Source of the DNA: Candidatus Roizmanbacteria bacterium RIFCSPHIGHO2_02_FULL_37_13b
GTDB lineage: Bacteria; Patescibacteriota; Microgenomatia; UBA1406; HO2-37-13b
Length of the DNA stretch: 64,000 nt
Assembly: GCA_001789395.1 (NCBI GenBank)
Contig: MFZK01000014.1
Span: 47,130-111,129, forward strand
Direction of reading: 5' to 3'
Numbering within the stretch: position 1 is the stretch's first letter; each line of letters opens with the position of its first letter. The position numbers were made by a program, and so were the translations under genes. Under the pieces are notes generated by a model. That model was not told where the DNA came from and did no database searches. It saw only the letters and a program-made list of their open reading frames with translations. This document shows positions 21,483 to 57,717 of the stretch, one piece after another.

Positions 21483-21679
21483 ATGGGTCGAAGCTCTCTT
21501 TTATTAGAGGAGCGGAGATCCCTACCGAAGTCCCGACTTTGCGTCGGGACGAAGGGGGAATTTTTTTGCACTTTGGCACTTTGACCCAGCTAGAACTCTT
21601 ACTTCGGTCTGAGAGGCTTACAGCCTCCCACTCCCGAGGAGTGAGTCTACTGGGTTTGCAGTGCTACACACTTTTACAA

Positions 21680-21929: not shown

Positions 21930-23432
21930 ATGGACATTCACGTCCACCATGGACCAATCCAGACGACAGCCGCAGACGCAATCGTCGTCAACCTCTTTCA
22001 AGGTGTCACTCACCTGGGTGGTGCCACCGGAGCCGTCGATGCCGCCTTGGGCGGCCAGATCAGCGCCGTGATCGGTAGCGGCGACTTTAAGGGCAAGCTT
22101 GGCGAGACGCTTGTCCTATACGGTCGTGGCGTCATCCCGGCCTCCCGTGTGATCGTGGTGGGTCTCGGCAAGGCCGAGGAATTCATCCTGGACACCGTAC
22201 GGTGTGCCGCGGCCGCGGCAGCCCTCGCTGCCCGCAAGCTGGGTGCCCGGAGTCTCGCCACGATCGTGCATCGGGCCCGCGGCGACCAGTTAGATCTCGC
22301 CGCTGAGGCTCAGGCGCTGGTGGAGGGCACACTGCTCGCACTCTACGAGTTCAAGATCTACAAGACACAGGGGGATGAGACACCTTCCCAGGTAGAGTAC
22401 CTGACGGTGGTCGAGACGGATAGCGACCGGCTCGAGGCCATTAGTTCAGGTATCGTGGCCGGCGAGGCTGTGGCAGCCGGGGTGATCCTTGCTCGCGACC
22501 TGGCCAACCATCCGGGCAACGTGGCCACGCCGACGTACTTGGCAAACCAGGCCGTGGCGTTGGCCGAGCGTCACGGAATGCGTGTCGAGGTCTGGGATGC
22601 CGATCGAATGCGTGCTGAGGGCATGGGCGCGTTCTTGTCGGTCTCGGCCGGCTCGGCCGAGCCGCCGAAGTTCATCATCGTGGAATACGCGCCGACCGGC
22701 GACGCGGTACTCTCCCCCCACGTGTTGGTCGGGAAGGGGGTTACCTTCGATACCGGCGGCATCAGCCTCAAGCCCGGAGCGAAGATGGGTGACATGAAGT
22801 TCGACATGGCTGGCGCCGCCGCCGTGCTGGGGACGATGGAGGCCGTCGGTCGACTCAGTCTTAACAGGCGGATCGTCGGTCTCATCGGAGCCACCGAGAA
22901 CATGCCCGGTGGTAAAGCGACCAAGCCTGGTGACATCGTGAGGACCTTGACCGGCGCCACGGTCGAGATCGTCAACACCGACGCCGAGGGGCGTATGGTG
23001 TTGGCCGATCTCCTCGGATTCGCCCGTCGTCTTCAGCCGGCGGCGGTGGTGGATCTGGCGACGCTGACGGGCGCCATCGTCGTCGCGTTGGGGAGTCAGT
23101 ATGCAGGCCTCTTCGCGAACGACGACGCTTTGGCCTCCGCCTTGCAGGTTGCAGGCGAAGCGACCGGTGAACCTCTCTGGCGCATGCCGTTGGGGAAGCG
23201 ATACGATGACATCGTCAAGAGCAAGGTCGCAGATATGGCCAACTTGGCCCCAGGAAGTCCGGTGCCGGCCGGAGCCGTAAACGGCGCCAAGTTCCTGGAG
23301 CGCTTCGTGCAGTACCCGTGGGCGCACCTCGACATCGCTGCCACCGCCTGGGATGCCAAGGATATCTCCTATATCCCCGAAGGAGCTACCGGATTCGGGG
23401 TGCGGCTGCTCGTCCAGTGGCTGCGTGCCTGA
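21930..23432 (+). CDS. pepA: leucyl aminopeptidase, peptidase family M17; strongly GC-rich relative to the rest of the window
   Basis: 500 aa with the M17 signature NTDAEGRMVLADLL and VGKGVTFDTGGISLKP. GC-rich codon usage produces long spurious antisense ORFs (for example 22446..23327). Confidence 0.93.
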   Translation: MDIHVHHGPIQTTAADAIVVNLFQGVTHLGGATGAVDAALGGQISAVIGSGDFKGKLGETLVLYGRGVIPASRVIVVGLGKAEEFILDTVRCAAAAAALAARKLGARSLATIVHRARGDQLDLAAEAQALVEGTLLALYEFKIYKTQGDETPSQVEYLTVVETDSDRLEAISSGIVAGEAVAAGVILARDLANHPGNVATPTYLANQAVALAERHGMRVEVWDADRMRAEGMGAFLSVSAGSAEPPKFIIVEYAPTGDAVLSPHVLVGKGVTFDTGGISLKPGAKMGDMKFDMAGAAAVLGTMEAVGRLSLNRRIVGLIGATENMPGGKATKPGDIVRTLTGATVEIVNTDAEGRMVLADLLGFARRLQPAAVVDLATLTGAIVVALGSQYAGLFANDDALASALQVAGEATGEPLWRMPLGKRYDDIVKSKVADMANLAPGSPVPAGAVNGAKFLERFVQYPWAHLDIAATAWDAKDISYIPEGATGFGVRLLVQWLRA

Positions 23433-48524: not shown

Positions 48525-49415
48525 ATGACAAAAACTGGTACTTTTAAACTTAAATCAGGATTAGCCCAAATGCTAAAAGGTGGCGTCATTATGGATGTCG
48601 TTAATGCGCAACAAGCAAAAATCGCCGAAGACGCGGGAGCTGTAGCAGTCATGGCGCTTGAGCGAGTGCCATCTGATATAAGAAGTGCTGGAGGAGTTGC
48701 TAGAATGGCCGATCCGAAAATTATCAAAGAAATCCAAAAAGCAGTGACGATTCCTGTCATGGCCAAGTGCAGAATCGGCCATTTTGCCGAAGCTCAGGTA
48801 TTGCAGGCATTGGAGGTTGATTTTATTGATGAGAGTGAAGTTCTAACTCCTGCTGATGAAGAGTTTCATATTGATAAGACACCATTTACGATCCCATTTG
48901 TATGCGGAGCTCGGGATTTAGGCGAAGCGTTGCGAAGAATAAATGAGGGAGCTGCAATGGTAAGGACAAAGGGAGAAGCAGGAAGTGGTAATATCGTCGA
49001 AGCTGTCAAACATATTCGAAAAGTGACTGCAGGTATAGATGAAATTAAAAAACTTCTGATCAGTAAAAAAATGAAACAACTTAATGATGTGGCTATAAAA
49101 TACTCTGTTCCGGTTGAGTTGGTTATCAACACGGCTAAGTTAGGTCGTTTGCCGGTTGTCAATTTTGCCGCCGGAGGAATAGCTACTCCAGCTGATGCTG
49201 CACTTTGTATGCAACTTGGAGTTGATGGTGTCTTTGTTGGATCAGGAATCTTCAAAAGTCAAAATCCAGCTAAAACTGCTAGGGCTATTGTTGATGCAAC
49301 TGCTCATTTCACAGATGCTTCTAAAATCGCTAAAGTCAGTGAGAATCTTGGTGATCCGATGAAAGGGCAGGAAATATCTGATCTTGTGCAAAAGATGTCT
49401 GATCGCGGAATTTAA
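48525..49415 (+). CDS. pdxS: pyridoxal 5'-phosphate synthase lyase subunit PdxS
   Basis: [42 protein letters not shown]. Confidence 0.96.
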
Positions 49416-49428
49416 CTCCAGTAAATTT

Positions 49429-50022
49429 ATGAAATTGAAAAACATAGGAGTCTTAGGTTTTCAGGGTGATTTTGTCGAGCATATTGAAACGACAAAAAAA
49501 GCACTGAATAAACTAAGTTTTGAAGGAAACATCATAATGGTTAAAACCAAAGACAAGTTACAAAATCTTGACGGTCTGATAATTCCCGGAGGAGAAAGTA
49601 CCACATTGCAGACTTTGTGCATAAAAAACGGGCTGTGGGAAGATATGAAACGAATTAAATATATCTATGGTACCTGTGCTGGTGCAATTCTTTTAGCAAA
49701 AAAAGTTCTTCATAAAACCAAAAATCAGCAGACACTGGAGCTCATGGATATCGAGATAGATCGAAATGCATACGGTGGTCAGATTAGCTCTTTTGAAAAG
49801 AAAATTAAAACAAAATTAGGTAATTTTGATGCCGTCTTTATCCGCTCCCCAAGAATTACTAAGACGGGTAAGAATATTGTTATTATCGCAAAAGAAAGGA
49901 ATGAAGTATTAGCCTGTGAACAAAGAGATAAAGATAAATATTATTTGGTATCGTGTTTTCATCCGGAATTGACGACAACGATCTTCCACGAATATTTTCT
50001 CAAAAAAATCTATTCACAATAA
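49429..50022 (+). CDS. pdxT: pyridoxal 5'-phosphate synthase glutaminase subunit PdxT
   Basis: ORF 49384..50022. ATG 49429 gives MKLKNIGVLGFQGDFVEH. GTCAG catalytic Cys and FHPEL are present. Confidence 0.92.
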   Translation: MKLKNIGVLGFQGDFVEHIETTKKALNKLSFEGNIIMVKTKDKLQNLDGLIIPGGESTTLQTLCIKNGLWEDMKRIKYIYGTCAGAILLAKKVLHKTKNQQTLELMDIEIDRNAYGGQISSFEKKIKTKLGNFDAVFIRSPRITKTGKNIVIIAKERNEVLACEQRDKDKYYLVSCFHPELTTTIFHEYFLKKIYSQ

Positions 50023-50331
50023 TTATTTATTCTTTAATACTGTTTGATATCCGCCGCAACCTTTGAATAACCAATGAGCGACACGAGTGACAGTGGTAGT
50101 TGATGCACCGACTTTCTTAGCAATCAGTTCATAAGAACCTCCTTCTGTGAGTAATCGAGCGATCTCTAATCGATTGGAGAATTCTTCAATTTCAGGTAAA
50201 GTCATCAAATCGCGTATAAAATTGGTCATATCCGTTTCAGATTTTAAAGAGAGTAGAGCGTAGATTAATGCTTTTTCTTTACTATTTTTTGGTGAATATG
50301 TTTCTGTTTTAGTAAAACGGTTTGTTTTCAT
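50023..50331 (-). CDS. TrpR-like transcriptional regulator of the YerC/YecD family, divergent from the his operon
   Basis: LSLKSETDMTNFIRDLMTLPEIEEFSNRLEIARLL...GASTTTVTRVAHWLFKGCGGY closely follows the YerC/YecD pattern. Confidence 0.8.
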   Translation of the reverse strand: MKTNRFTKTETYSPKNSKEKALIYALLSLKSETDMTNFIRDLMTLPEIEEFSNRLEIARLLTEGGSYELIAKKVGASTTTVTRVAHWLFKGCGGYQTVLKNK

Positions 50332-50359
50332 ATGCTAATTATAAAGTATTGAATATCTC

Positions 50360-50400
50360 TTGACAATAATATAGTATCATGTTATCATATTAACATGATA
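50360..50400 (+). promoter_or_regulatory. his promoter (TTGACA-17-TATCAT with TGn extension) overlapped by a perfect 10-bp inverted repeat operator
   Basis: TTGACA at 50360-65 and TATCAT at 50383-88. TATCATGTTA (50375-84) pairs with TAACATGATA (50391-400), with a 6-nt spacer. Confidence 0.6.
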
Positions 50401-50457
50401 GAAAATAAGGTTAGTAACTTTGAAGTAAATCATCATTACCCTGCTTCGGCGGGGTGA
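50395..50457 (+). CDS. candidate his leader peptide (20 aa, MIENKVSNFEVNHHYPASAG) with tandem His codons
   Basis: ATG 50395 lies about 7 nt after the -10 box, implying a leaderless transcript. CAT CAT falls at 50431-36, immediately 5' of attenuator segment 1. The TGA stop at 50455-57 lies just after segment 2. Confidence 0.45.
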   Translation: MIENKVSNFEVNHHYPASAG

Positions 50458-50505
50458 TATTGGCGTTTTATTTTTTGTAACCCCGCCTAACCAGCGGGTT
50501 TTTTT
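50439..50505 (+). promoter_or_regulatory. three-structure transcription attenuator (1:2 anti-antiterminator, 2:3 antiterminator, 3:4 terminator + U7)
   Basis: 1:2 is CCCTGC-TTCG-GCGGGG (50439-54). 2:3 is GGCGGGG (50448-54) with CCCCGCC (50481-87). 3:4 is CCCGC (50482-86) with GCGGG (50494-98), followed by T7 (50499-505). Confidence 0.55.
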
Positions 50506-50630
50506 ATGTAGCTGTTTCTGCTTTCATAATAAAACGCAGAAATACAGCTACATAACCCCGTAGGATCGCTCCTCGGAGGCAAGGATGTAACCCTTGCGAC
50601 GAGGTAAGATTCCTTCGGGGTAAAGAAATT

Positions 50631-51509
50631 ATGCAGAAACTTAATAATGGAAATATAAAATTAGCGATTCAAAAGAAAGGTCGATTGAGTGAGGATTCGA
50701 TTGAATTTTTGCGAAAAGCTGGTCTTGAGTTTGAATCCTACAGTAAAAGCTTATTTGCCTCTTGTCGCAATTTCCCACTAGAGATTCTTTTTGTGCGTGA
50801 TGATGATATTCCCGATTACGTTGAGACGGGGGTAGTTGATCTTGGGATTGTTGGTCAAAATCTGCTTAATGAACTGCAACCAAAGGTAAAAAAGCTTTTA
50901 AACTTACGATTTTGCTTCTGCTCTCTTTGTCTTTGCGTGCCTAAAGACTCTTCAATTTCAGACTTTTACGATTTAAACGATGCGAAAGTGGCTACCTCAT
51001 ATCCAAACTCGACTAAATATTTTTTGCTAAAAAACAATATTAAAGCCAAAGTAATTACGATAAACGGTTCAGTTGAAGCAACTCCAGTTTTGGGAATTGC
51101 CAATGCCATAGTCGATCTTGTCTCAACCGGAAGTACTCTTTCAGCCAACGATCTAAAAATAATCTCCAAATTATATGATTCTGAGGCGATTTTAATATCA
51201 AATATTAATTTATTGACTAATAAAAAAAAGAATGCACTTGTTAATAAACTACTTACTCGATTCAAGGGAGTATTAGTGGCTAAAAACTATAAATATGTAA
51301 TGATGAATGCACCGGAAAAAATACTTCCGAAAATTAATAAAACTATTCCTGGATTGAAATCGCCAACGATTTCTCCACTTAATTCAAAAGGGTGGATTTC
51401 TATTCAATCAGTGATCAAAGAGGACGTATTTTGGGAAACCATTGAAAAGCTTAAAAAAATTGGCGCGACGGGAATTTTGGTATTGCCAGTTGAAAAATTG
51501 ATTCTATGA
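50631..51509 (+). CDS. hisG: ATP phosphoribosyltransferase, long form
   Basis: IKLAIQKKGRLSE, DIPDYVETGVVDLGIVG and LVSTGSTL motifs. At 292 aa it includes a C-terminal regulatory domain. Confidence 0.93.
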   Translation: MQKLNNGNIKLAIQKKGRLSEDSIEFLRKAGLEFESYSKSLFASCRNFPLEILFVRDDDIPDYVETGVVDLGIVGQNLLNELQPKVKKLLNLRFCFCSLCLCVPKDSSISDFYDLNDAKVATSYPNSTKYFLLKNNIKAKVITINGSVEATPVLGIANAIVDLVSTGSTLSANDLKIISKLYDSEAILISNINLLTNKKKNALVNKLLTRFKGVLVAKNYKYVMMNAPEKILPKINKTIPGLKSPTISPLNSKGWISIQSVIKEDVFWETIEKLKKIGATGILVLPVEKLIL

Positions 51510-52795
51510 AAGTCACAAAACTCTCTGATTTATCAAAAAAAGATTATGAACGAATAGTAAGACGATCATTTGGTACTAATCTATCTATTATGCCTAATGT
51601 TAAAAAGATTATCCGAGATGTTAAGACGAACGGAGATAGTGTAATTATCAATAATTGTCAAAAAAATTATGGTATTCAAAATCTTGACAATCTTCAGGTA
51701 ACGCAAAGTGAAGTGAAGAATGCATATTCCCAAGTAGATAAAACAACAATACAAGCATTGAGACAAATGATAAAAAATATTACCTTAGTTCACAAGGCAC
51801 AGCTTCCTCGCAAAAAAGATACAATTGTGCAAACGGAAAAAGGTATTCGTGTTTGGCGCGAATGGAGAGCGATTGAGAAGGTTGGATTATACGTTCCGGG
51901 AGGAAAGGCAATATATCCTTCATCAATATTGATGAGTGCTATACCGGCACAAATTGCGGGGTGCCGCGATATTATTCTTTGTTCTCCAGCAAAACAAGAC
52001 GGAAACATGTCTGCGGCAACCATTATTGCTGCTGATCTAATTGGGTTACGGAAACTATATAAAGTTGGAGGCATTGAAGCAATCGCGGCAATGGCTTATG
52101 GTACAGAAACGATTCCCTGTGTTTATAAAATTTTTGGGGCAGGCAATGCGTATGTTACTGCTGCAAAAATGTATGTGTTTGGAGACGTTGCCATCGATAT
52201 GCCTGCTGGTCCTTCGGAAATATTTATTATTGCTGATAAAGAGGCAAATCCTAAGTTTATAGCTGCAGATTTACTTGCCGATGGCGAACATGGAACAGAT
52301 TCAGCATGTGTGCTTATCACTACGTCGCAACAAATTGCTAAAGAGTCAATCAAGCAAATTGAAAAACAATTACAAAGCTTGAGAACCAGAGACCGTATAG
52401 AGGAATCTATTAAAAGATATGGATTGTTTGCGATAGTTAATTCACTTGATGAAGCCGTTTCATTTGCTAATGAATATGCGCCGGAGCACTTAGAAATTAT
52501 GACAAAAAATCCTGAAAAATTGGTTGAAAAGATAACTAATGCCGGATCAATTTTTCTCGGCGATTGGACATCAAAAGCTACGGGAGATTATGCAACAGGC
52601 GCCAATCACGTGTTACCAACTGGGGGTACAGCCAAAATGTATTCACCACTTGGAGTTGATGCATATGGAAAATGGATGCAAGTACAAGAATGCACGAAAG
52701 ACGGTCTAATGGCGATAAAAAAAACAATAGAAACTATTGCTGAAGTTGAGCAATTACCAGCTCACAAAAATTCAATATCAGTTCGATTTGCATAG
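51506..52795 (+). CDS. hisD: histidinol dehydrogenase
   Basis: VGLYVPGG, AGPSE, EHGTDS and APEHLE motifs. Confidence 0.95.
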   Translation: MKVTKLSDLSKKDYERIVRRSFGTNLSIMPNVKKIIRDVKTNGDSVIINNCQKNYGIQNLDNLQVTQSEVKNAYSQVDKTTIQALRQMIKNITLVHKAQLPRKKDTIVQTEKGIRVWREWRAIEKVGLYVPGGKAIYPSSILMSAIPAQIAGCRDIILCSPAKQDGNMSAATIIAADLIGLRKLYKVGGIEAIAAMAYGTETIPCVYKIFGAGNAYVTAAKMYVFGDVAIDMPAGPSEIFIIADKEANPKFIAADLLADGEHGTDSACVLITTSQQIAKESIKQIEKQLQSLRTRDRIEESIKRYGLFAIVNSLDEAVSFANEYAPEHLEIMTKNPEKLVEKITNAGSIFLGDWTSKATGDYATGANHVLPTGGTAKMYSPLGVDAYGKWMQVQECTKDGLMAIKKTIETIAEVEQLPAHKNSISVRFA

Positions 52796-52796
52796 T

Positions 52797-53864
52797 ATGA
52801 AAAATAATAAATACTTTTCAAAAATAGCAGAAAAAATTGTTCCTTATCAATGGGAAGAGAGTTTGTCTGATGAAGTATTACGATTTGACACAAATACAGT
52901 TCCATTTCCGCCACCAAATTTGCAACGATTTTTTAAATCACTTGGCAATAATTGTCCTATCAATGAATATAAAGATCCGTCATATAAAAAACTGGAAACT
53001 CTTATTGCGCAATATGAAAAAGTCCAATCAGACATGATTACGGTGACAAATAGTGGCGATGAAGCGCTTGACATCTTAGCTAAGACATTTTTGGACGATG
53101 ACGATACATTCTTGGTAACGCCGCCGACTTACGAAATTTTTTCAATTCAGTGCGAACTTAATAAAGGACGAAAAGTTGAAGTCCCGCTTTCAGGCAAATT
53201 ATTTAACGTTAATACCAATAAAATTATTACCACAACAAACGAACAAAAAGTTAAACTTATTTTTCTGTGCAATCCTAATAATCCAACAGGCACAATTATT
53301 TCTCAAAGTGATATCGAAAAAGTGGTTCGATGCTGTTCAACTATAGTAGTTGTGGATGAAGCATACCGTGAATTCTATGGCAATAGTTCGGTTACACTTC
53401 TTAAAAAATACGATAATTTGGTAATTCTACGTAGTTTTTCAAAATTTGCTGGTATTGCCGGTGCGAGAGTAGGATATCTTATTGCTAATTCTTTTTTGTC
53501 ATCTAAATTTCACAGCATTCGTTTCCCGATGGGAGTGAGCTATTTTTCGTACAAACTTGCTGAATGGGTACTTGAGAATGATCAACAATGGATGAATCAA
53601 CAAATTGAAATGATTAAAACCGAAAGAGAAAGGCTTTCAAACAAATTATTAGTAATGGGTTTTTATGTCTTGCCATCAAAGGCAAATTTTTTGCTGGTAA
53701 ATATTGGAGCTCGTGTTAAGGAAATACAAGACAAGCTTAAAAAGAAGGGCATATTAATTCGTGACCGTAGTTCAAAAAAATATTTGACAGGATGTGTACG
53801 GATTACAGTTAGGAGTCGCAAAGAAAATGATGTATTAATAAATGCACTAAAAAAAATTGTATGA
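52797..53864 (+). CDS. hisC: histidinol-phosphate aminotransferase
   Basis: ORF 52737..53864. ATG 52797 follows the hisD stop. NPNNPTG, and SFSKFAGIAGARVGY with the PLP Lys. Confidence 0.9.
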   Translation: MKNNKYFSKIAEKIVPYQWEESLSDEVLRFDTNTVPFPPPNLQRFFKSLGNNCPINEYKDPSYKKLETLIAQYEKVQSDMITVTNSGDEALDILAKTFLDDDDTFLVTPPTYEIFSIQCELNKGRKVEVPLSGKLFNVNTNKIITTTNEQKVKLIFLCNPNNPTGTIISQSDIEKVVRCCSTIVVVDEAYREFYGNSSVTLLKKYDNLVILRSFSKFAGIAGARVGYLIANSFLSSKFHSIRFPMGVSYFSYKLAEWVLENDQQWMNQQIEMIKTERERLSNKLLVMGFYVLPSKANFLLVNIGARVKEIQDKLKKKGILIRDRSSKKYLTGCVRITVRSRKENDVLINALKKIV

Positions 53865-54502
53865 AACTGAATTATGATGGATTAATTTTTGATATGGATG
53901 GAGTATTAGTTGATGTATCACGATCTTATCGTGAAGCAATTCGACAAACCGCGAGTTATTTTCTGAACCGAAATGTGTCGATGAATGAGGTAACTGAAAT
54001 AAAGAATAAAACCGGTATGAACAATGACTGGGATGCGACAATCGCATTAATAAATAACAAAAAAATTTCATTCAAATCTGTAAAAAAATATTTTCAATCA
54101 CTCTATTTGGGTAATAAAAATACGAGTGGACTTATCGATAATGAAAAATTATTAATCTCAAAAATGATGCTCGTAAAGTTAAAAAAGAAATATAAAAAAA
54201 TAGCAATCGCTACGGGAAGGCCGCGAAAAGAAGCAGAATATGTTATGAAAAAAAATATGCTTCAGAGAGTATTTGATTGCTTGATTGCAAGGGAAAACGT
54301 AAAGAGAGACAAACCGGCACCGGAATCGATCATAAAAGTCATAGAAATTCTTGGGCTTAATAATACGGTTTATATCGGCGATAGCCCAAGTGATGTATCT
54401 GCGGCAAAAAATGCCGGGATACCAAGTATATATGTAGGTGATCAAAATATTGGAACAATGCGTTTTCCAACAATATTACAAGTTATTAAATATCTATTAT
54501 GA
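53861..54502 (+). CDS. HAD-superfamily (subfamily IA-like) phosphatase embedded in the his operon; candidate histidinol-phosphatase
   Basis: DMDGVLVD motif I, ATGRP motif II region and GDSPSDVSAAKNAG motif III. ATGA overlaps with both hisC and hisB. Confidence 0.6.
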   Translation: MKLNYDGLIFDMDGVLVDVSRSYREAIRQTASYFLNRNVSMNEVTEIKNKTGMNNDWDATIALINNKKISFKSVKKYFQSLYLGNKNTSGLIDNEKLLISKMMLVKLKKKYKKIAIATGRPRKEAEYVMKKNMLQRVFDCLIARENVKRDKPAPESIIKVIEILGLNNTVYIGDSPSDVSAAKNAGIPSIYVGDQNIGTMRFPTILQVIKYLL

Positions 54503-55089
54503 AAAGAGCTAGTCAATTAAATAGAAAAACAAATGAGACGGAAATTTCCATAGATTTAAACATTGAGGGAACCGGAAAAAGAAATATCGATACCCCTATT
54601 GGTTTTTTGAATCATATGCTTGATTTATTTGCAAAGCATGGCTTGTTTAATCTGAATATAAAAGCAAGCGGAGATACATTTATAGATGATCATCATACAG
54701 TTGAAGATTTGGGAATTGTTTTAGGGAGTGCATTTGGTAAAGCGCTTGGTGATAAAGCAGGAATTAATCGATATGGTTTTTTTATATTACCGATGGATGA
54801 AGCGGTGGCCACGGTCGCAATCGATTTTTCAGGACGATATGCATTTTCATTTGACTGTAATTTTAAGCGGGAAAAAGTCGGCAATTTATCAACGGAGCTA
54901 ATTTATGATTTTTGGGATGCGTTTGCCCAAAATGCCAAAGTTAACCTATATATAAAAGTTGAAAATGGTCGAAACGATCACCACAAAATTGAGGCTATAT
55001 TTAAGGCATCGGCTAGAGCAATTCGGTCGGCATGCGAGTTAGATAAACGAGCTATATTTGAAATTCCGTCAACGAAAGGAATTTTATGA
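54499..55089 (+). CDS. hisB: imidazoleglycerol-phosphate dehydratase (monofunctional)
   Basis: RKTNETEISIDLNIEG, DDHHTVEDLGI and NDHHKIEAIFKA motifs. Confidence 0.95.
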   Translation: MKRASQLNRKTNETEISIDLNIEGTGKRNIDTPIGFLNHMLDLFAKHGLFNLNIKASGDTFIDDHHTVEDLGIVLGSAFGKALGDKAGINRYGFFILPMDEAVATVAIDFSGRYAFSFDCNFKREKVGNLSTELIYDFWDAFAQNAKVNLYIKVENGRNDHHKIEAIFKASARAIRSACELDKRAIFEIPSTKGIL

Positions 55090-55706
55090 TCACAATTGTT
55101 GATTATGGCTTAGGGAATTTGGGAAGTATTAAAAATGCTTTTGACAAGCTGAACATTAATTCTGTGATTTCAAGTTCGGCAAAAGAAATAGAGAAAGCCA
55201 CAGGGATTATTTTCCCGGGTGTTGGGGCAGCTGGTGCTGGCATGAAAAATTTAAGGGAAATGGGATTAGATGAAATAATTGAATCATTGATTCGAGTAGA
55301 AAAACCGTTACTTGGAATTTGCCTTGGTATGCAACTTTTCATGTCATTTAGCGAAGAGGGAAATGTTAACTGTCTCAATTTGATCAATGGGAATGTTAGG
55401 CGATTTAATACAAAATTTAAAGTGCCGCAGACGGGTTGGAATCAAGTTAAAAAAAATAGAGCATCAAAATTACTAAAAGGAATCAATAACAATTCTAATT
55501 TTTATTTTGTTAATTCATATTATTGTGATCCATTTGACAAAAAAATTGTAAAAGGAGTTACAGAATATGGACAAACATTTTGTAGCGTTTTTGAAAAGAA
55601 AAATATTTTTGGTGTTCAGTTTCACCCAGAAAAAAGTGGAGAAAATGGATCGCAGTTATTAAAAAATTTTACCGACATAGTCTATGAAAATACTACCTGC
55701 AGTTGA
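55086..55706 (+). CDS. hisH: imidazole glycerol phosphate synthase, glutaminase subunit
   Basis: IVDYGLGNLGS, GICLGMQ and GVQFHPEKS motifs. Confidence 0.95.
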   Translation: MITIVDYGLGNLGSIKNAFDKLNINSVISSSAKEIEKATGIIFPGVGAAGAGMKNLREMGLDEIIESLIRVEKPLLGICLGMQLFMSFSEEGNVNCLNLINGNVRRFNTKFKVPQTGWNQVKKNRASKLLKGINNNSNFYFVNSYYCDPFDKKIVKGVTEYGQTFCSVFEKKNIFGVQFHPEKSGENGSQLLKNFTDIVYENTTCS

Positions 55707-56397
55707 TATAAAAAACGGTAAATGTGTAAGGCTGACACAAGGTGATTATAGTCGAGAAACGATCTATGAAAATGATCCAGTCATAATTGCAAAAAAATGG
55801 CAATCTCAGGGTGCCAAAGATCTTCACATTATTGATCTTGATGGCGCCAGAGAAGGAAAAACAATTAATCTAAAAGTCATTGCTGACATTATCGAAGACA
55901 CAGGTCTTACGGTGCAGGTTGGAGGCGGTATTCGCACCATCAAATCTGCACAGAAATATTTTGAAATTGGAATGTCAAGATTAATTTTAGGAACTGTGGC
56001 AATAGATAACCAAGAATTGTTGAAAGAATTTATCGATAAGTTTGGAGAAAAGATAATTGTATCGCTTGACGTGAAAAATAAAAAATTAGCCAAAAAAGGT
56101 TGGATTAATTTAAGTAACGATGAATTAATTCCAAAAGCTAAAGAAATTGAACAATTGGGTGTTAATACGATTATTTATACCGATACAAATAGAGATGGAA
56201 TGTTAACAGAACCTAACTATAGAAATATTGTCGGGTTAAAGAAAGCCGTAAAAATTAATGTGGTAATTGCAGGCGGTGTTACAAATATAGATCAAGTAGC
56301 AATACTAAAGCGATTGAAAGTTGATGGAATTATTATCGGAAAAGCCTTGTATGAGGGTTCTATAAATTTAGAGGAGGTACTAAAATATGCTGACTAA
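55684..56397 (+). CDS. hisA: ProFAR isomerase
   Basis: [24 protein letters not shown] and VGGGIR motifs. Confidence 0.94.
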
Positions 56398-57145
56398 ACG
56401 AATTATTCCGTGCTTGGATGTTGATGATGGACGCGTTGTTAAAGGAGTCAATTTTGTAAATATTGTGGATGCTGGTGATCCAGTTGAACTGGCTAAAATA
56501 TATAACAATGAAGGAGCTGATGAGCTCGTTTTTTTAGATATCACAGCATCAAGCGATAACAGAAAAATCATGATAGATATTGTAAAAAAAGTCGCCAAAA
56601 AAGTGTTCATTCCCTTTACTGTTGGTGGAGGAATTAGAACCATTGAAGATATTAAAAACAATCTTATCGCTGGAGCAGACAAAATCGCAATTAATACATC
56701 TGCAGTAAAAAACCCACAATTAATTAAACGAGGAGCGAGTATGTTTGGTAGTCAATGCATAGTTGTTGCAATTGATGCAAAAAAACAGGGCAATAGCTGG
56801 GAAGTATTCATTAATGGAGGACGAACGGCAACAAGAATAAATGTTTATGACTGGGTACAAAAAGTAGTTCAACTTGGAGCAGGTGAGATTCTTTTAACCA
56901 GTATGGATCGAGATGGAACCAAAGACGGGTATGATATCGAGTTAACTAAAAAAATATCAGAAAATGTGTCGGTTCCAGTTATTGCTTCAGGTGGTGCAGG
57001 AAGCCTTCAAGATTTTGCACAAATATTTAATGATGGAAAAGCTGACGGCGCACTTGCTGCATCATTATTTCACTATGATGAATTAAAAATTGCTGACTTG
57101 AAACAATATTTATTACAAAGTCAAATTCCAATGCGAATAACATGA
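56387..57145 (+). CDS. hisF: imidazole glycerol phosphate synthase, cyclase subunit
   Basis: [22 protein letters not shown] and [12 protein letters not shown] motifs. Confidence 0.96.
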
Positions 57146-57146
57146 C

Positions 57147-57452
57147 ATGGAAAAAAAATTGATACCAACGATTATTCAAGATTATAAAACCAATGATGTG
57201 TATATGTTGGGGTTTAGTACTACAGAGTCATTAAAGAAAACAAAAAAAACAGGTCTGGTTCACTTTTGGAGTCGTAGTAGAAAGAAATTGTGGAGGAAAG
57301 GTGAAGAATCAGGTAATTCATTACAAATAAAAGAAATATTTTTTGACTGTGATAACGATTCACTATTATTTAAAGTTAAACTTATAGGAAAATATACTTG
57401 TCATAAGAATCGGACAAGTTGTTTCTTTAATAAATATGATGACATTAAATAA
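57147..57452 (+). CDS. hisI: phosphoribosyl-AMP cyclohydrolase
   Basis: SRSRKKLWRKGEESGNSLQI...DCDNDSLLFKV...CH motifs. Confidence 0.92.
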   Translation: MEKKLIPTIIQDYKTNDVYMLGFSTTESLKKTKKTGLVHFWSRSRKKLWRKGEESGNSLQIKEIFFDCDNDSLLFKVKLIGKYTCHKNRTSCFFNKYDDIK

Positions 57453-57717
57453 ACTTTATTCAGTAATCAATAGTCGCAAAAAAAAATTACCTGCTAAATC
57501 ATATACTGCCTCATTGATTAGAGGAGGTAGTGATTCTATTCTCAAAAAAGTAGCAGAGGAATCAGCTGAAGTTGTAATTGCATGTAAAAACAATCAACAG
57601 AGAGAAATGATTAATGAAATCGCCGATTTATGGTATCACGTTTTAGTTCTTCTTGCCGTCAAGAATATTAATTTAAAAGATATATTTTATGAATTGGAAA
57701 AAAGATCTAAGAAATAA
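57436..57717 (+). CDS. hisE: phosphoribosyl-ATP pyrophosphatase
   Basis: SYTASLI...KKVAEESAEVVIA...EIADLWYHVLVLL motifs. Confidence 0.9.
   Translation: MMTLNKLYSVINSRKKKLPAKSYTASLIRGGSDSILKKVAEESAEVVIACKNNQQREMINEIADLWYHVLVLLAVKNINLKDIFYELEKRSKK

Follow-up and report, generated by a model that had tools for sequence, protein, structure and literature searches.

A probable two-layer histidine switch, combining a HisR-type regulator and a leader-peptide attenuator, on the his operon of a Roizmanbacteria-like genome

In E. coli, tryptophan biosynthesis is controlled by the TrpR repressor together with the trpL leader, which contains two Trp codons. For histidine, it has been reported that HisR, the family of B. 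subtilis YerC, was predicted by comparative genomics and analysed across 492 genomes, the phyla studied being Firmicutes, Actinobacteria, Synergistetes and Proteobacteria, with Patescibacteria outside the coverage (Ashniev et al. 2022, PMC9413887). HisR proteins belong to the TrpR family, recognize 20-bp palindromic operators whose consensus outside Proteobacteria is cacTTTAnnnnnnTAAAgtg, control his operons and histidine transporters, and are often autoregulated; purified HisR of R. gnavus, the only one for which this was shown, bound its site only with histidine present, and HisR2 paralogues control tyrosine decarboxylase genes (PMC9413887). The same study described dual control by HisR and a T-box in Listeria spp. 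and Natranaerobius thermophilus, and candidate his attenuators with 3-5 His codons in a row in the B. cereus group, Peptostreptococcaceae and Erysipelotrichales; leader-peptide attenuators were sought there only in genomes without HisR, and HisR combined with a leader peptide was not reported (PMC9413887). Our literature search found no description of HisR or of his-operon attenuators in Patescibacteria. Here we analyse a 64-kb stretch of contig MFZK01000014.1 (the window, meaning the whole stretch) from a Roizmanbacteria-like genome of the Patescibacteria, or Candidate Phyla Radiation (CPR), in which a hisR-like gene and a his operon diverge from a shared intergenic region. We consider it quite likely that this region carries a two-layer histidine switch acting on the his operon, composed of an operator for the HisR-type protein and a leader-peptide attenuator.

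The arrangement resembles the E. coli trp system in several respects. In both, the repressor belongs to the same protein family and its operator lies over the -10 box of a biosynthetic promoter; a short leader peptide contains two adjacent regulatory codons; four RNA segments can form the pairings 1:2, 2:3 and 3:4; an intrinsic terminator precedes the first structural gene; and the free amino acid and the charged tRNA would both be sensed. The locus differs from trp in that it concerns histidine, has its regulator gene beside the target, probably uses a leaderless leader open reading frame (ORF), and shares no leader sequence homology with trpL. Enterobacterial hisL (RF00514) likewise combines a His-codon leader peptide, alternative hairpins and a terminator upstream of hisG, but its His codons number seven in a row, and it lacks a repressor. 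In Listeria and Natranaerobius, histidine genes are also under HisR plus an RNA device that reports tRNA-His charging; their device is a tRNA-binding T-box, whereas here it would be a leader peptide. The attenuators of the B. cereus group and the other lineages named above are, as here, non-proteobacterial leader-peptide attenuators upstream of his operons, but their His runs are longer and their genomes lack HisR. With this regulator and operator, the published HisR system gains a member at the level of a new phylum, and their control of the his operon extends HisR and is not a new principle; what is new here is that they are obligatorily paired with a minimal two-His leader-peptide attenuator and that the whole is used as a portable cassette. 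Read in this way, the TrpR/trpL 'double lock' architecture would have an equivalent for histidine in which the repressor comes from the same protein family.

The initial annotation of the window had placed the 102-aa regulator in the YerC/YecD branch of the Trp-repressor fold, and profile searches agree. Two profiles recognise the protein, Pfam Trp_repressor PF01371 (E 1.3e-17, 64 bits) and NCBIfam TIGR02531 yecD_yerC (titled 'YerC/YecD family TrpR-related protein'), the latter with 64.1 bits where its cut-off is 42.2; with 24.5 bits, the protein falls far below the cut-off of 67 of the true-TrpR model TIGR01321. Its best relatives in the PDB are the HisR-type TrpR-like structures 3G1C, 3FRW and 3KOR (E 8e-12 to 4e-10), and none of the E. 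coli TrpR chains came below E 0.01 in this comparison. The first of these, 3G1C, is the E. eligens protein called HisR by Ashniev et al. (PMC9413887). The recognition helix of the window protein, GASTTTVTRV, aligns with GASTATISRV of E. eligens HisR, and the acidic helix-2 positions noted for HisR are kept in the window protein and its relatives, with D41, E47 and E50 invariant and E49 nearly so. The prediction of YerC-family proteins as histidine repressors, cited by the initial annotation, is published and in part validated experimentally (PMC9413887). Nearly all of the 335 homologues of the regulator belong to Candidatus Roizmanbacteria, Microgenomates or the Patescibacteria group. In different samples from ENA and JGI, six contigs have the identical protein and the identical intergenic region, in the context pdxS, pdxT, regulator gene, hisG-D-C-HAD-B-H-A-F-I-E; therefore the locus is not an assembly artefact, and it is part of a CPR bacterium with a complete his operon.

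Several genomes also encode a second, shorter TrpR-family paralogue a few kb from the hisR-like gene (L013 3297-3527, L034 20053-20268, L055 3242-3475, L066 17321-17551, L069 6916-7131, L080 12063-12281 and L087 5809-6066; L numbers denote compared loci). The first six share 37-40% identity with the window protein, and the copy in L087 is known from its Pfam Trp_repressor match alone.

The regulator gene (ending at 50331) and hisG (50631) are separated by 299 bp. The perfect 10-bp inverted repeat reported in this gap by the initial annotation is exact on re-reading: its arms, 50375-50384 and 50391-50400, comprise 10 nt each, are 100% complementary and are spaced by 6 nt. Even with 3 mismatches allowed, the pattern has this single match in the window, and 0/100 dinucleotide shuffles matched it. 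The same annotation had set the repeat over the -10 box and the predicted start of the his leader transcript, and this position holds, because the -10 hexamer TATCAT is at 50383-88 and the consensus scan puts the expected his-side +1 near 50395. On the opposite strand a second promoter is predicted for hisR, and the -35 hexamers of the two overlap (TTGACA / TTGTCA, 50360-50366). The hisR ATG (50331) lies 7 nt past its -10 box, the start site being a prediction, and relatives place TGnTATAAT 4-7 nt ahead of the yerC ATG (yerC being the hisR-like gene of each locus). On the his side, the ATG of the leader ORF (50395-50397) falls inside the right operator arm, again 7 nt past the -10 box, an arrangement seen in 22 loci including the window. 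Since both ATGs are 7 nt past a -10 box, the hisR and his-leader messages are, by spacing alone, probably both leaderless.

Compared with the published HisR regulon, the locus shares a YerC-type protein of ~100 aa, the 7-N6-7 layout with a TTA-N6-TAA core in the his promoter, and a hisR gene that often adjoins the his operon. The inner 20 bp of the window operator, CATGTTA-N6-TAACATG, agree with the consensus cacTTTA-N6-TAAAgtg at 5/7 bases per half-site. The differences are a CPR half-site of yrTGTTA against cacTTTA, a recognition helix with T-T-T in CPR against T-A-T in Firmicutes, an operator found only beside hisR in the sampled CPR loci, and the added leader-peptide attenuator.

To follow the operator beyond the window, we used one scan of species-representative genomes that yielded 80 loci from relatives 51-73% identical, nearly all Roizmanbacteria/Microgenomates, of which 78 had enough upstream sequence to be usable. 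A symmetrised weight matrix was built from the sites of 59 relatives, with the window left out, and sites were called at >= 18 bits. The window operator scores 24.4 bits (training median 26.2) and is the sole match in the window. Among the usable loci, 70/78 have a site at this threshold, including all of those adjacent to his genes (22/22). When applied to 1.14 Mb of relatives' DNA, the matrix found 71 matches, every one of them <= 1.3 kb upstream of yerC, and 0 in mononucleotide shuffles of the same DNA. Nearly every locus has the same design of divergent gap, TTGAC(A), 12 nt, yrTrTTA-wCATry-TAAyAyG, regardless of the downstream genes. The palindrome centre is fixed 28 nt from the start of the TTGACA -35 box, a register held in ~60 relatives, and information content peaks on both arms, the right arm (3' of the -10 box) being as conserved as the left. 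Additional half-sites, displaced by 8 bp from this register, are present in many relatives and may mean that dimers bind in tandem there. The his operon (hisG-D-C) is divergent from and immediately adjoins the regulator gene in 22/80 species loci, and also in L087 to L089. The nearest relatives, known from long metagenomic contigs (72% and 67% protein identity), have the same divergent his arrangement and keep the arms (TATTATGTTA or TACTATGTTA, with TAACATGATA), while the spacer varies. Taken together, regulator, palindrome and his genes are co-conserved, as the reading of the initial annotation requires, in the two nearest metagenomic relatives as well as in 22 at species level. In the relatives, protein and operator appear always to travel together, and they probably also control genes other than his.

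In six of the genomes (L019, L024, L030, L035, L041, L057) an insertion of ~650-700 bp parts yerC from the operator and promoter; it has ORFs on the opposite strand, and the cassette downstream of it is intact.

Between the operator and hisG we found the elements of a leader-peptide attenuator (Table 1), in which the His codons directly abut a G+C-rich hairpin on its 5' side, and several lines of evidence uphold the earlier claim that such a device precedes the his genes. The first is the reading frame. An ATG-initiated ORF reaches the pair of His codons in the His frame in 63/64 loci, against 2/64 and 0/64 in the other frames. The His pair itself varies synonymously, as CATCAT in 45 loci, CATCAC in 13, CACCAC in 2 and CACCAT in 1, with CATCAA in 3. 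The stop codon lies 15-39 nt past the start of the pair in 60/65 loci, and in relatives it either closes segment 2 or comes 12-15 nt later. By alignment, the equivalent peptides of the nearest relatives are MILLEKPNEYDLNHHCPAKAG and MIVNKLSVKLEVNHHCPALAG. The second is the folding of the RNA. When the transcript was truncated before segment 4 and the footprint of a ribosome at the His codons was masked, the 2:3 pairing formed in the window and in 56/60 loci; in the unmasked truncated RNA of the window, 1:2 forms and segment 3 stays free.

The third line is conservation of the helices. A covariance model of the terminated-state attenuator (R2) matches each of 63 loci exactly once, the window among them (50428-50504), and nothing else in 1.22 Mb. 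Pairs were counted on the alignment fitted to R2; counts on the MAFFT alignment A2 were dropped, as the stem registers shift between its rows. Pairing in the 1:2 and 3:4 helices reaches 82%, against 41-63% with a slid partner, and these helices show 22 two-sided changes against 7.7 in shuffles, a number that 0/500 shuffles reached. For the 2:3 helix, 89.6% of cells are paired across the 63 loci, against 47-54% with a slid partner. In L056, all four segments change in concert (CCTCTC/GGGAGG/CCTCCC/GGGAGG).

Described leader families gave no match. Rfam His_leader (RF00514) was not found at E up to 1 in 49000-52000, T-box (RF00230) was found neither in the window nor in one relative's leader, and across the 64-kb window every Rfam family stayed below its gathering score. 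When that one relative's leader was searched against Rfam, only an embedded tRNA passed, and Trp_leader scored 24.5 bits, below its cut-off of 41 bits. T-box, His_leader and any other Rfam family were thus rejected as the identity of the leader.

Based on these features, we propose the following mechanism. In the first layer, the HisR-type protein would bind the operator as a dimer with histidine as co-repressor; since the operator lies over the his promoter at its -10 box and +1, binding would block initiation. Autoregulation of hisR is also possible, as the operator overlaps -10-like hexamers on the hisR strand. In the second layer, which we draw from the conserved anatomy, transcripts that have been started would carry the 20-codon leader ORF, probably translated leaderless. 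When charged tRNA-His is scarce, a ribosome would pause at the His codons and cover segment 1, so that segment 2 could pair with segment 3, no terminator would form and the polymerase would read into hisG. When it is plentiful, the ribosome would reach the stop codon ending inside segment 2, and the 3:4 hairpin with its run of seven Ts would terminate transcription near 50505. The two layers would read different signals, the repressor free histidine and the leader charged tRNA-His. The dual control at the DNA and RNA levels that the initial annotation had put forward is supported by the conserved operator together with the conserved His-codon attenuator. All of the evidence for the switch is computational and comprises sequence features, family membership, conservation and exclusive linkage across relatives; from these we infer DNA binding, the effector, the transcription starts and ribosome-dependent antitermination at the locus.

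Table 1. Features of the hisR-his locus, in window coordinates (operon coordinates past 56397 were converted from locus L001).
Feature	Position	Strand	Basis
hisR-like gene, 102 aa	50023..50331	-	ATG-initiated ORF; Pfam and NCBIfam matches
Predicted hisR promoter: TTGTCA 50366-50361, N17, TATAAT 50343-50338	50338..50366	-	Consensus scan, 11/12
Predicted his promoter: TTGACA 50360-65, N17, TATCAT 50383-88, TG 50380-81	50360..50388	+	Consensus scan, 11/12
Candidate operator TATCATGTTA-TCATAT-TAACATGATA	50375..50400	.	Perfect inverted repeat; conserved inner 20-22 bp core 50377-50398
Leader peptide ORF MIENKVSNFEVNHHYPASAG*, 20 codons, stop TGA 50455-57	50395..50457	+	Sequence reading; relatives' ORFs
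Tandem His codons CAT CAT, proposed sensing site	50431..50436	+	Synonymous variation across loci
Hairpin 1:2, 10 bp: segment 1 50435-44, loop 50445-48, segment 2 50449-58	50435..50458	+	Fold
Antiterminator 2:3: GGCGGGGT (50448-55) with ACCCCGCC (50480-87)	50448..50487	+	Fold with segment 1 masked
Intrinsic terminator 3:4: CCCGC 50482-86, GCGGG 50494-98, T7 50499-505	50482..50505	+	Terminator scan; fold
Structured RNA: hairpin A 50505-50554 and motif B 50550-50624	50505..50624	+	Fold; covariation; model R1
Target operon: hisG (long form), hisD, hisC, HAD phosphatase, hisB, hisH, hisA, hisF, hisI, hisE	50631..57717	+	ORFs; Pfam of identical L001

We also found the same combination of hisR, operator and attenuator in front of other gene sets, at 58 loci without adjacent his genes. 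One such target is a histidine ammonia-lyase, a hutH equivalog (TIGR01225, 554 bits, cut-off 539), together with a threonine-synthase-like pyridoxal phosphate (PLP) enzyme; hutH-like loci number nine (L011, L012, L021, L028, L040, L050, L057, L081, L086). Another is a histidine-racemase-like domain fused to GNAT, beside an M15 peptidase (L022, L032, L043, L066, L068), where the racemase-like domain scores 70-74 bits on the CntK/HisR-Fuso models, below their cut-offs. The remaining targets include a 256-aa protein without assigned family accompanied by an ArgE/DapE-type deacylase, class I/II aminotransferases, a cysteine-synthase-like PLP enzyme with an alanine-racemase-type protein, and a polar amino-acid ATP-binding cassette (ABC) transporter (L027, L078), with a HisJ/ArgT-type binding protein among the targets. 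The repeated histidine theme of these targets supports histidine as the signal and suggests that, in auxotrophic CPR bacteria, the cassette is a marker of genes for acquiring histidine. Tentatively, and with the balance of our judgement falling slightly short of even, we propose that hisR, operator and two-His leader attenuator form a portable histidine-starvation switch placed on at least seven further gene sets, tRNA-His among them. If this is true, the cassette would mark previously unrecognised pathways of histidine salvage or acquisition in otherwise auxotrophic CPR bacteria and, as far as our literature search shows, would be the first cross-genome regulon defined for CPR.

Several observations weigh against the two-layer reading. 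On the DNA side, the half-site departs from the Firmicutes consensus at 2/7 positions. The further copies of the palindrome that the initial annotation had thought worth seeking turned up next to yerC and nowhere else, as no operator copy away from yerC was seen in the 64-kb window or the 1.14 Mb of relatives' flanks. On the RNA side, the 2:3 helix is backed by conservation in the 63 loci and not by covariation, of which it shows little, as expected where each segment must pair with two partners. Full-length minimum free energy (MFE) folds often keep the terminator when segment 1 is masked, since 3:4 is the more stable local hairpin; full-length MFE is unsuited to a kinetic mechanism, and folds truncated before segment 4 were therefore used instead. 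As modelled, the attenuator would rely on co-transcriptional kinetics. The leader has two His codons only, whereas the Firmicutes candidates have 3-5 and E. coli has 7, and three loci have His-Gln in place of the pair. Three his-adjacent loci (L072, L077, L082) have the operator and lack the attenuator; their gap is just 66-84 bp, with no leader ORF or terminator, and the repressor layer can therefore occur on its own. Finally, the cassette precedes the catabolic hutH in nine relatives, which is a poor fit to a switch that is on when histidine is low; this paradox hints at an unrecognised pathway.

An alternative that we consider improbable is that the palindrome is only an autoregulatory or bidirectional promoter element and that the his operon is controlled by the attenuator alone. 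The palindrome always adjoins yerC, ~55-75 nt before its start, it contains -10-like hexamers of the yerC strand (minus-strand matches ending at 50395 and 50366), and about half of the HisR genes of Firmicutes are autoregulated. However, the best yerC promoter (TTGTCA-N17-TATAAT, 11/12) is outside the palindrome, which would sit at ~-44 to -69 from that start, and it is the -10 box and +1 of the his promoter, itself an 11/12 match, that the palindrome covers. In addition, its register is fixed to the his-side TTGACA in ~60 loci, whereas its distance to yerC ranges from ~40 to >700 nt.

We give equally little credence to the possibility that the ligand of the regulator is not free histidine but, for example, another amino acid or a pathway intermediate, in the manner of the HisR2 paralogues. 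HisR paralogues with non-histidine regulons do exist, the histidine-binding residues of HisR are not established, and the targets in CPR relatives are heterogeneous. Nevertheless, the operator is nearly always paired with a His-codon attenuator (63 attenuator matches, 83 sources searched), the targets that can be recognised are histidine enzymes, namely the his operon, hutH and histidine-racemase-like proteins, and the conserved acidic helix-2 positions of HisR are present in the window protein and its relatives.

Less probable again is a leader that is not sensed by the ribosome and acts as a constitutive terminator or pause, or as an RNA that binds tRNA-His or a protein in a T-box-like way. 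Against the asymmetry of frames, the synonymous variation of the His pair, the conserved position of the stop codon relative to segment 2 and the failure of T-box or other Rfam families to match the leader, such a reading can set only two His codons, the lack of a visible Shine-Dalgarno sequence, and the tRNA-His genes or tRNA-like elements directly 3' of the terminator in several relatives. That the inverted repeat arose by chance in an AT-rich promoter, as the ~35% G+C of the window and the part of the repeat that is itself the -10 hexamer might suggest, is effectively refuted by the shuffles (0/100), the matrix matches (71 real against 0 shuffled) and a right arm conserved as well as the left.

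Some of the relatives' leaders contain tRNA sequences. Five have a tRNA-His gene (anticodon GTG, encoded G-1, C73) within the his leader, between the attenuator terminator and hisG, at the following minus-strand coordinates: L023 9574-9648, L035 9057-9130, L036 9447-9521, L045 8309-8383 and L047 7248-7322; truncated remnants of tRNA-His are present in L042 and L054. Position 33 of tRNA is almost universally U; read by eye, it is G in 4/5 of these genes and U in that of L047. In L026, L033 and L084, a tRNA-like minihelix (GTTGTCATAGCTTAAATGGTAGAGC...GGGTTCGAGTCCCATTGACAAC) lies ~10 nt past the His attenuator terminator and has an acceptor stem, D arm and T arm and no anticodon arm. It precedes a GGAGG-led operon that encodes the cysteine-synthase-like PLP enzyme and the alanine-racemase-type protein. 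In the 64-kb window, ARAGORN found no tRNA gene.

Between the terminator and hisG, the window has a structured RNA with an MFE of -59.7 kcal/mol (z -8.2) and a score of 74.6 bits on the covariance model R1. Its hairpin A has the form ..CUGUUUC..GAwUACAG.., and its motif B is 75 nt long. The apical stem of motif B has 5 bp, its 7-nt loop, nYGUARn, looks like an anticodon arm, and its 3' strand, GAC(C)GARGUAAG, is conserved. Compensatory changes affect 9/15 pairs among nine copies. Among the compared loci, R1 found ten strong copies and a weak one at window 21580-21660 (minus strand); besides the window, the loci are L014, L019, L023, L024, L031, L036 (two copies), L045 and L047. A metagenome scan followed by R1 added 32 further copies (among L091-L164), which are 99% paired and show 73 two-sided changes against 16 in shuffles. 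Copies occur after attenuator terminators, before or between tRNA genes, and in the 5' untranslated regions of leuA-like genes, purF-like genes and hisG. The structured RNA has no Rfam match, and alignment shows that it is absent from the his leaders of the nearest relatives. Its absence there and the 32 copies in unrelated contexts led us to reject it as a third histidine-specific layer, whether riboswitch or tRNA-His sensor. To judge from its distribution, it is a dispersed CPR element inserted here, outside the histidine logic, and it looks like a processing, stability or mobile element.

To our knowledge, very little is known about gene regulation in CPR/Patescibacteria. The locus offers a concrete candidate circuit whose parts, the 102-aa repressor, the 26-bp site and the ~110-nt attenuator, are small enough for in-vitro work without culturing the organism. 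Furthermore, the stereotyped cassette can flag histidine-related genes in CPR genomes, including operons without assigned function, and may help to predict whether a lineage makes histidine or scavenges it.

Most CPR/Patescibacteria are thought to lack amino-acid biosynthesis. The window encodes a full his operon, PdxS/PdxT, a class I aldolase, fructose-1,6-bisphosphatase and phosphoglycerate kinase, and is unusually biosynthetic for CPR. At 21930-23432 (plus strand) it also contains a 500-aa ORF that resembles leucyl aminopeptidase, in a 2-kb stretch of 57% G+C, while the rest of the window has 32-41% G+C; this ORF was probably acquired by recent horizontal transfer. The gap immediately upstream of it contains, on the opposite strand, the weak second copy of motif B.

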